Assembly (NCBI GenBank): GCA_045047115.1
Contig: JASFYR010000019.1
Coordinates: 42,461 to 106,460 of the forward strand
Length of the DNA: 64,000 bases
Reading direction: 5' to 3'
Source: Sulfurospirillum sp.
GTDB taxonomy: Bacteria; Campylobacterota; Campylobacteria; Campylobacterales; Sulfurospirillaceae
Shown here: positions 49,204-50,172 of the stretch, piece by piece
How positions within the stretch are numbered: position 1 is the first letter of the stretch
Layout: every line of letters begins with the position of its first letter
The notes under the pieces: generated by a model
Databases searched by the model: none
What the model saw: only the letters and a program-made list of their open reading frames with translations
What the model was told of the DNA's origin: nothing
Program-made: the position numbers and the translations under genes

Positions 49204-50172
49204 ATGTGCGGGAATAGCTCAGTGGTAGAGCACGACCTTGCCAAGGTCGGGGTCGCGAGTTCGAACCTCGTTTCCCGCTCCATTTTATTGCTACTTCTTG
49301 TTTTTGGTTTTTTGCACTCAAACAGTGAGTTGTCTTTAAAACATAGCTATTGCGTGGATGGTTTAAAAAGGGTTGATGCCTCTTTGTTCGATAAACATAT
49401 AAAACAAGATTTTTTTATACTTGATTTGCCAAAAAACAGAGCAAGATACACTGTCTCCTCGCTGAAAATTCTATCAAAATTTAAAAAAAACGATATAAAC
49501 ATAACAGATCTCTCAAACGGTACAGTAATCTTTAAAAACTGTCATCTTCCCATAGATGTAAAACTTATAAAAACGGAATTGGCAAAAAAATTCAAAGAGA
49601 GATTTCCGAGTATTGAGATAAAGAGTATCTCCATATCTTCACCCTCTTCTCTTGGGCCCGGGTTGTCCTTTTACAAGATAGATGGTATTGAGTTGAAACC
49701 AAATTCATTTGAAAGATCAAAAGGAGTTTTAGGCGTAAGACTTATAAGGGATAATGAAACAAGAAAGATATATCTAAAGTTTGATATAGATGCGACAATT
49801 ACTGTTTTTAAAGCGAACTATAATTTGCGAAACGGTAAAATCCTGCAAAAAGATGATTATATAAAAAAAAGGGTGAAGCTTGATAGACTAAGGAATGGTG
49901 TGATTACGGGAAAACTCCAAAAAAACTACATAGTCAAAGGTTACATCAAAAAAGATACTATTTTAAATGCAAGACATTTTCGGATCAAAAAAGATATATT
50001 AAGAGGTGAATACATAAAAGCTGTTTTTCGGAACGGAAATCTTGTCTTGGAGACAGATGCACACTTGCTAAATGATGCAAATATAGGAGATACAGTCCGT
50101 ATAAAAACATCTTCAGGCAAGACTCTAAGGGCAAAAATAATATCTTTGAAAACAGCCAAAATTTTGGAGTAA
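49204..50172 (+). CDS. flgA: Flagellar P-ring chaperone FlgA (start uncertain; frame runs through the tRNA)
   Basis: C-terminal SAF/FlgA-like region (LRNGKIL...[15 protein letters not shown]); flgA-ubiX-coaD-tmk-hisS synteny. Confidence 0.8.
49208..49282 (+). tRNA. tRNA-Gly (GCC)
   Basis: GCGGGAA acceptor stem, AGCTCAGTGGTAGAGC D arm, anticodon GCC 49240-42, GTTCGAA T loop, encoded CCA. Confidence 0.97.

Follow-up and report, generated by a model that had tools for sequence, protein, structure and literature searches.

In the thrU-tyrU-glyT-thrT-tufB arrangement, a protein gene lies behind tRNA genes and is served by a stable-RNA promoter, with its own Shine-Dalgarno (SD) sequence and start codon after the tRNA. 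A tRNA held inside an open reading frame (ORF) has been predicted in Alphaproteobacteria, where selC, encoding tRNA-Sec, is nested in the selB ORF (Mukai, 2021, PMC8124441), and that paper presents the case as the earliest report of a tRNA gene lying within a bacterial ORF. It also describes a tRNA-Lys held in the mitochondrial cox1 of Armadillidium vulgare (via PMC8124441). In the literature searched here (titles and abstract openings, with few subscription papers), selC/selB was the sole bacterial chromosomal nested case found, and it is likewise sequence-based; the same search yielded no description of an overlap between flgA and tRNA-Gly, and no paper on a Streptomyces tRNA/ccdA overlap, on which nothing here relies. 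The present comparison of sequences points to flgA and tRNA-Gly as a real, conserved dual-coding locus, another case of this rare known kind.

Layout and conservation of the flgA/tRNA-Gly locus

The DNA analyzed, here called the window, is a stretch of 64,000 nucleotides from a Sulfurospirillum genome. It carries the gene order murA-moeA-tRNA-flgA-ubiX-coaD on a single strand, with the following features.

47969..49177, + strand: moeA (PF03453/PF00994/PF03454), with its TGA stop at 49175-49177
49164..49168, + strand: Shine-Dalgarno AAGGA, 5 nt upstream of TTG 49174
49174..50172, + strand: flgA coding sequence as proposed here, 332 codons from a TTG start, giving a 36-residue n-region, the h-region and mature FlgA
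49175..49183, + strand: motif TG-a-TACCAT, predicted as the extended -10 box of P2, a promoter for the tRNA
49184..49207, + strand: stretch from the P2 -10 box to the tRNA, 24 nt, stop-free and in the flgA frame
49204-49206, + strand: ATG singled out in the preliminary description, beginning 4 nt before the tRNA
49208-49282, + strand: tRNA-Gly(GCC) (ARAGORN), 75 nt with encoded CCA, amounting in the flgA frame to 24 codons plus shared end bases
49222..49224, + strand: D-loop GTG in the flgA frame, a possible secondary start
49282..49320, + strand: signal-peptide h/c region, by hydropathy only, whose first codon, ATT at 49282-49284, takes the A of CCA
50175..50696, + strand: ubiX (HMM), 2 nt past the flgA stop
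downstream of ubiX, + strand: coaD (HMM match)

The ORFs that follow coaD on the same strand are presumably tmk- and hisS-like, judging by gene order and the look of the sequence. The flgA ORF scores 58.6 bits against PF13144 (cut-off 23.8) and 78.6 against TIGR03170 (cut-off 54.65), and is the sole PF13144 match in a genome that also contains flgI. ARAGORN and the sequence agree with the preliminary description that a tRNA-Gly lies in the flgA frame with an ATG 4 nt upstream, that the first codon of the h-region uses the A of CCA, and that neither a spacer nor an SD follows the tRNA; the terminator that it reported missing after the tRNA was likewise not found on the + strand in a scan of 46300-51200. 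What it missed is that the flgA frame is also open above ATG 49204, up to TTG 49174. A promoter scan of 46300-51200 returned 20 sites against 13.6 expected, and P2 is absent from that list. The minimum-energy structure of 49150-49330 is not a cloverleaf (z -1.9), and a single-sequence AlphaFold model (mean pLDDT 32) was set aside. A second, non-nested tRNA-Gly(GCC) copy lies at C12:54690-54764. The genome encodes both RNase J and the RNA of RNase P, and a search of it gave no match to the RNase E/G family. The genome also has tRNA-Sec (C29) and tRNA-Glu(CTC) (C5).

Gathering flgA from related genomes gave 146 loci, with tRNA-Gly(GCC) just upstream in 113; among the 33 loci where no tRNA-Gly was called are some at contig ends, one whose tRNA is N-masked, some that truly lost it, and members of families that do not have the arrangement. 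The tRNA is nested in frame, with the h-region beginning at its terminal A, in 109 of the 113 loci with an adjacent tRNA-Gly, and in 78 of 82 once the 31 loci chosen by the junction pattern are removed; the pattern search also matched unrelated tRNA-Gly copies, flgA being absent from 9 of the loci that were examined. Nested loci span five Campylobacterales families: f1, which is the window's own family (Sulfurospirillaceae), f12, f11, f4 and f17. Database proteins with the same N-terminal form as f12 bear the names Campylobacter fetus and C. iguaniorum. The counts overstate independence, as 43 of the 109 nested loci come from one genus and many are near-identical, and they amount to about 8 independent events. 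An open frame inside the tRNA is not evidence by itself, because any tRNA-Gly(GCC), the second copy at C12 included, is open in the frame equivalent to that of flgA. What exceeds chance is the fixed junction between tRNA and h-region, together with the phase of the upstream leader. Across the 109 loci the first 10 residues of the h-region have a mean Kyte-Doolittle value of 2.94 (minimum 2.11), and a comparable hydrophobic run follows the tRNA in just 1 of 41 second copies. In homologs without a nested tRNA the same h-region is directly preceded by a start codon and an n-region that is short and for the most part basic. The arrangement is dispensable, being uncoupled in 4 of the 113 adjacent loci, and many families are without the tRNA. 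The nested tRNA occurs in 9 variants among 109 copies, all with every stem paired, with compensatory changes at pairs 7-65, 26-42, 27-41 and 51-61, and it is identical to the second copy of the same genome in 34 of 39 cases. As judged from such patterns, both the tRNA layer and the coding layer are under selection.

Some loci depart from the common form in other respects. At L023 (G022:C158), in an 81%-complete genome, flgA is broken by a stop or frameshift, possibly through assembly error. A short FlgA (~250 aa) occurs at L024, L068-L072, L111 and other g5/g39 loci, without ~60-75 residues of the N-terminal mature region and with the nested tRNA and h-region kept. Directly before flgA at L116, L139, L115 and L112 (f16, f24) stands tRNA-Leu(CAA) with no tRNA-Gly; past this tRNA, flgA carries a start of its own at L116, L139 and L112. 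At L114 (f12 g31) a tRNA-Gly lies ~1.4 kb upstream of the flgA match.

Position of the FlgA start codon

The conventional downstream start that the preliminary description had weighed against its own reading is absent from most nested genes: no ATG, GTG or TTG occurs within the first 12 codons after the tRNA in 88 of 109 loci (21 have one), and the start must therefore sit elsewhere. In the window the likely start, judged from sequence, is TTG 49174, which lies 30 nt above ATG 49204 and inside the predicted tRNA promoter. This codon overlaps the moeA stop by 4 nt (TTGA), the same -4 overlap being found in 12/12 loci of the genus, and a canonical in-frame start lies at or above the extended -10 triplet in 95/95 loci of f1 and f12. 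In these two families the triplet bearing the extended -10 TG is in the flgA frame (TTG in 43/43 f1 loci, ATG in 9/9 g39 loci), and in g17 an ATG or GTG comes after the -35 box. When SD-like is defined as a duplex of -3.5 kcal/mol or lower with a generic anti-SD, such a duplex precedes the triplet in 43/43 f1 loci, 5/9 g39 loci, 0/43 g17 loci and 8/94 control promoters. The first start of g17 lies -4 to 11 nt from the moeA stop, a closeness that would allow coupling without an SD; one g39 row of the underlying table was disregarded as an artefact. For Campylobacter jejuni the consensus is given as AAGGA for the ribosome binding site and TGxTATAAT for the promoter (PMC3656092). P1 and P2 as used here are pattern matches. 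The P2 motif, of sigma-70 type, was called in 100 loci, 87 through a -35 box at 17 nt and 13 through the TG extension; the -35 box is missing in the window's genus, and a consensus TTGAC box is found in most other nested loci. The predicted P2 of the window is degenerate, has no -35 box and may be weak. Conservation of the TTG proves nothing alone, because its TG doubles as the extended -10 of the promoter, and the case for an upstream start therefore rests on phase and on stop avoidance.

Both properties were compared with control tRNAs from the same genomes, namely the second tRNA-Gly(GCC) (41 loci), tRNA-Asn (30) and tRNA-Thr(TGT) (28), two non-orthologous tRNA-Thr(TGT) matches being left out. 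The distance from -10 box to tRNA in f1 and f12 is 12, 15, 18, 21, 24 or 27 nt, always a multiple of 3; leader lengths of the control tRNAs vary by single bases. On a FastTree tree of FlgA (94 loci, one short fragment being off the tree), parsimony places 8 length changes in the nested leaders, 0 of them altering phase, and 33 in the controls, 29 of them altering phase, with 9 of the 41 tRNA-Gly controls left out because they were off the tree or had a weak call. Restricting the count to protein-chosen loci leaves 7 length changes, and restricting it to f1 leaves 4, again with 0 altering phase. At a one-in-three chance per change, phase kept in 8/8 changes corresponds to p ~1.5e-4. In-frame stops are present in 0/57 distinct segments between start and tRNA, with 55 and 16 for the other two frames. 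TATAAT, which as a -10 box would put TAA in the flgA frame, occurs in 0/100 nested promoters versus 74/99 controls, whose -10 calls were made with a score that favoured the consensus. In its place the nested promoters have 11 different hexamers as -10 box, for which the tree shows 25 changes. Selection, as it appears in these comparisons, is keeping the frame open through the predicted promoter and leader.

These results bear on the reading that the tRNA is never translated, that its frame stays open as a side effect of tRNA sequence and promoter motifs, and that FlgA begins further downstream and has no signal peptide. RefSeq and JGI entries do start downstream (the window's P0002 has 272 aa), and the flgA frame is open in every tRNA-Gly(GCC). 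However, a hydrophobic h-region that is in frame in 109/109 loci would then go untranslated, and neither a conserved phase nor avoidance of TATAAT is seen at the promoters of the control tRNAs. The role of FlgA as a periplasmic chaperone and the presence of flgI in the genome also argue against a signal-less protein. This reading is extremely unlikely.

The start favoured by the preliminary description, ATG 49204, is canonical and in frame, would be carried on P2 transcripts, and is shared by one f11 locus. However, it has no SD (score +2.3) and sits in a 12-nt insertion, and a sister genome of equal leader length does not have it. The conservation at flgA loci that the preliminary description set as a check holds for the frame and junction, and the ATG at -4 recurs in only 2/109 loci; nor is such an ATG special to the flgA locus, its frequency being at chance level (3/35 tRNAs of the genome, 7/30 tRNA-Asn control leaders). 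ATG 49204 is very improbable as the start in the window's genome, and probably encodes an internal Met that is private to that genome bar one convergent case.

Lineages that have lost the tRNA offer a view of the same region. The following were examined.

L269:2340-2480, tRNA lost
L258:2320-2470, tRNA lost
L251:2330-2500, tRNA lost

In L269 and L258 the ATG of flgA overlaps the moeA stop, and in L251 flgA has its own SD and ATG, with a consensus TATAAT box upstream. By eye, L269 retains 17/24 bases of the tRNA 3' end in frame as coding sequence, and 5/7 of the changes in this remnant fall at third codon positions (also by eye); any remnant in L258 or L251 has diverged further and is harder to discern. 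The starts of all three lie 5 to 16 codons above the position expected if tRNA 3' processing freed a leaderless or near-leaderless flgA mRNA, beginning at the terminal-A ATH codon or at TTG 49288. For such processing it may be said that the first codon is ATT, ATC, ATA or ATG in 105/109 loci and that the h-region begins exactly there. However, an ATN at the terminal A is expected anyway, T following CCA in 40/41 second copies, and on this ground ATN at the terminal A was ruled out as a non-canonical start. Leaderless initiation generally requires a 5' AUG. The terminal A opens an ATG in 2/109 loci and an ACT in 4/109, the equivalent of TTG 49288, the alternative start of the preliminary description, occurs at codon 3 in 3/109, and a canonical start lies within the first 4 codons after the tRNA in 11/109. 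A leaderless product would moreover be without an n-region, and such a start predicts no phase constraint upstream, where constraint is seen. Processing of this kind is therefore highly unlikely to supply the FlgA start.

Families f11 and f4 are exceptions to the upstream start. The 5 loci of f11, whose leaders measure 14 and 20 nt, have no upstream in-frame canonical start save the -4 ATG in one of them. Instead, an ATG found 36-42 nt ahead of the tRNA, past the -35 box, opens an ORF of 18-20 codons (L025, L081-L084) that spans the -10 box and terminates in 5/5 loci at a D-arm TAG 4 nt past the in-frame GTG. The f11 -10 boxes also avoid TATAAT, which would be a stop for the short ORF. This ORF is possibly a re-initiation device; no slippery heptamer for a -1 frameshift was seen in f11 by eye. 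In f4 (10 loci) a tRNA-Leu(CAA) precedes the tRNA-Gly. At 5 loci a frame that begins at a GTG, 7 nt past the -10 motif, crosses both tRNAs and continues into FlgA (inter-tRNA spacers of 9, 9, 15, 24 and 24 nt), at 3 an upstream ORF stops at the D-arm TAG (spacers of 8, 8 and 5 nt), and 2 are uncoupled; the frame of the upstream start fails to reach FlgA in 4/10. Spacers between the two tRNAs in f4 measure 9, 15, 18, 24, or 5, 8 nt, never 1 modulo 3. The f4 GTG lies at the predicted transcription start and is possibly used as a leaderless start. A flgA frame open through tRNA-Leu(CAA) and then tRNA-Gly was seen at L128, L129, L130, L131 and L107 (f4) and at L113 (f17). The start mechanism is not uniform across families, since f11, one locus aside, has no upstream in-frame start and g17 has no SD at the extended -10 triplet. 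With weaker evidence, f11 and f4 fit a broader rule in which ribosomes are delivered into the tRNA.

These families bring forward the D-loop GTG (49222 in the window) as a rival start, for which the purine-rich 5' end of the tRNA would act as a weak SD. The tRNA would still encode the n-region, of 20 residues, and P2 transcripts would be translatable. The codon is in frame in 47/109 nested copies, all those of f11 and f4 included, and the short ORFs ending at the D-arm TAG, 4 nt past it, occur in f11 (5/5) and in two-tRNA loci (3/10). Many database FlgA entries begin there (313-320 aa), and in two genomes, G000 (that of the window) and G063, GTG (T at position 16) stands in the nested copy and GCG in the second, the reverse being found in 0 of 39 pairs. 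However, GCG or GGG takes its place in 62/109 copies, the codon sits in the folded D-arm, and a D-loop start leaves unexplained the upstream phase and stop avoidance that are also found in GTG-bearing f1 lineages (leaders of 24, 18, 15 and 12 nt). The D-loop GTG is thus unlikely to be the start.

A model for FlgA expression

Taken together, the present data allow FlgA to be modeled as probably translated from TTG 49174 through the tRNA-Gly, and, whichever start is used, very probably across the greater part of this tRNA. What the sequences themselves display is the SD, the overlap with moeA, the frame and its junction to the h-region, the conservation of each and the selection on the frame; the remainder of the model is inferred from these. 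Because the start lies inside P2, it needs RNA begun further upstream. Among the 97 loci with enough upstream DNA, moeA is adjacent without a P1 motif in 64, P1 is present without an adjacent moeA in 30, both occur in 3 and neither in 0; a P1-like motif is found in 6/91 controls. A long transcript carrying SD and start would be supplied by read-through from moeA, as in the window's genus, or by P1 where moeA is not adjacent. A short transcript from P2 would yield the tRNA and the downstream genes and no FlgA, since the SD and start codon lie inside P2 and would be missing from it. On the long transcript a ribosome would load at the SD, or be handed over from the moeA stop, and would have to get past the tRNA ahead of its folding and of cleavage by RNase P. 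Such a cut at 49208 would detach the start codon from the remainder of the flgA message, with a short fragment that has no stop codon as the other product. The output of FlgA would be low, in competition with tRNA maturation molecule by molecule, and the downstream genes would retain a strong tRNA promoter. The proposal that the tRNA encodes the FlgA n-region, with maturation and translation mutually exclusive on each transcript, is thus the part of the preliminary description that most likely holds, with ATG 49204 given up as the start.

The number of residues before the h-region is 36 in the window, most of which the tRNA would encode, and 32-36 in f1. A long signal peptide of ~50 residues would be exported by Sec and then removed, and the residues constrained by the tRNA may be tolerated because they are discarded with it. 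A low, processing-limited output of FlgA would suit an assembly chaperone, and flagellar assembly may in this way be linked through regulation to the processing of the tRNA, as the preliminary description put forward. Regulation and a frozen accident of compaction both stand as readings. A more extended set of proposals is tentative, and to the set as a whole we give slightly less than even weight. It holds that four layers overlap within ~110 nt, an overlap maintained throughout Campylobacterales (the end of moeA, the tRNA promoter, the ribosome binding site and start of flgA, and a tRNA gene that doubles as n-region code); that the level of FlgA may be set by promoter choice, P1 or read-through versus P2, and by the race between ribosome and RNase P; that P-ring assembly may respond to tRNA-processing flux; and that in f4 the frame may run through two tRNAs, with a short ORF in f11 and part of f4 handing ribosomes to the D-loop GTG.

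Significance and relation to known systems

Some of the GenBank entries under the names C. fetus (254 aa) and C. iguaniorum (252 aa) belong to clusters whose representatives run through the tRNA; annotators have therefore called the ORF that way. For nested loci, RefSeq and JGI often give shorter proteins. P0002, P0030 and P0036 are without the h-region, and P0002, the database entry for the window, starts at 49354, past the signal peptide. Such shortened entries probably stem from pipelines that avoid overlap with a tRNA. The annotation is here corrected for FlgA entries of 142-271 aa, which are too short to hold a signal peptide, and comparable tRNA-CDS overlaps may be systematically missed. 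The flgA case brings a standard tRNA, cultured genera (Sulfurospirillum, Campylobacter) and a selection signal tested against controls, and its simple read-out, FlgA export and motility, makes the predicted competition of ribosome and RNase P on one RNA testable.

In thrU-tyrU-glyT-thrT-tufB the protein gene starts after the tRNA, whereas in 88 of the 109 nested flgA loci the first 12 codons past the tRNA contain no canonical start. As in A. vulgare cox1, the tRNA lies wholly within the coding region in direct orientation and alternative processing is proposed. That case, however, belongs to a compact animal mitochondrial genome and a reduced tRNA of 60 nt (via PMC8124441), whereas flgA belongs to the chromosome of a free-living bacterium, where the nested tRNA is canonical and has a second copy elsewhere that is not nested. 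The closest likeness is to selC/selB as presented in PMC8124441: a whole tRNA lies on the same strand in a bacterial ORF with the frame kept across a clade, the overlaps involve neighbouring start and stop codons, remnant tRNA codons persist after loss, the arrangement is conserved yet non-essential, and the same either-or model is predicted from sequence in both. In selC/selB, according to the same paper, a special tRNA forms the C-terminal extension of its own elongation factor. In flgA, a standard tRNA would stand at the N-terminus as the n-region of a presumably cleaved signal peptide, in a functionally unrelated flagellar chaperone. Unlike selC/selB, flgA would further have its SD and start codon inside the predicted promoter of the tRNA, and selection on its frame can be measured against control tRNAs.
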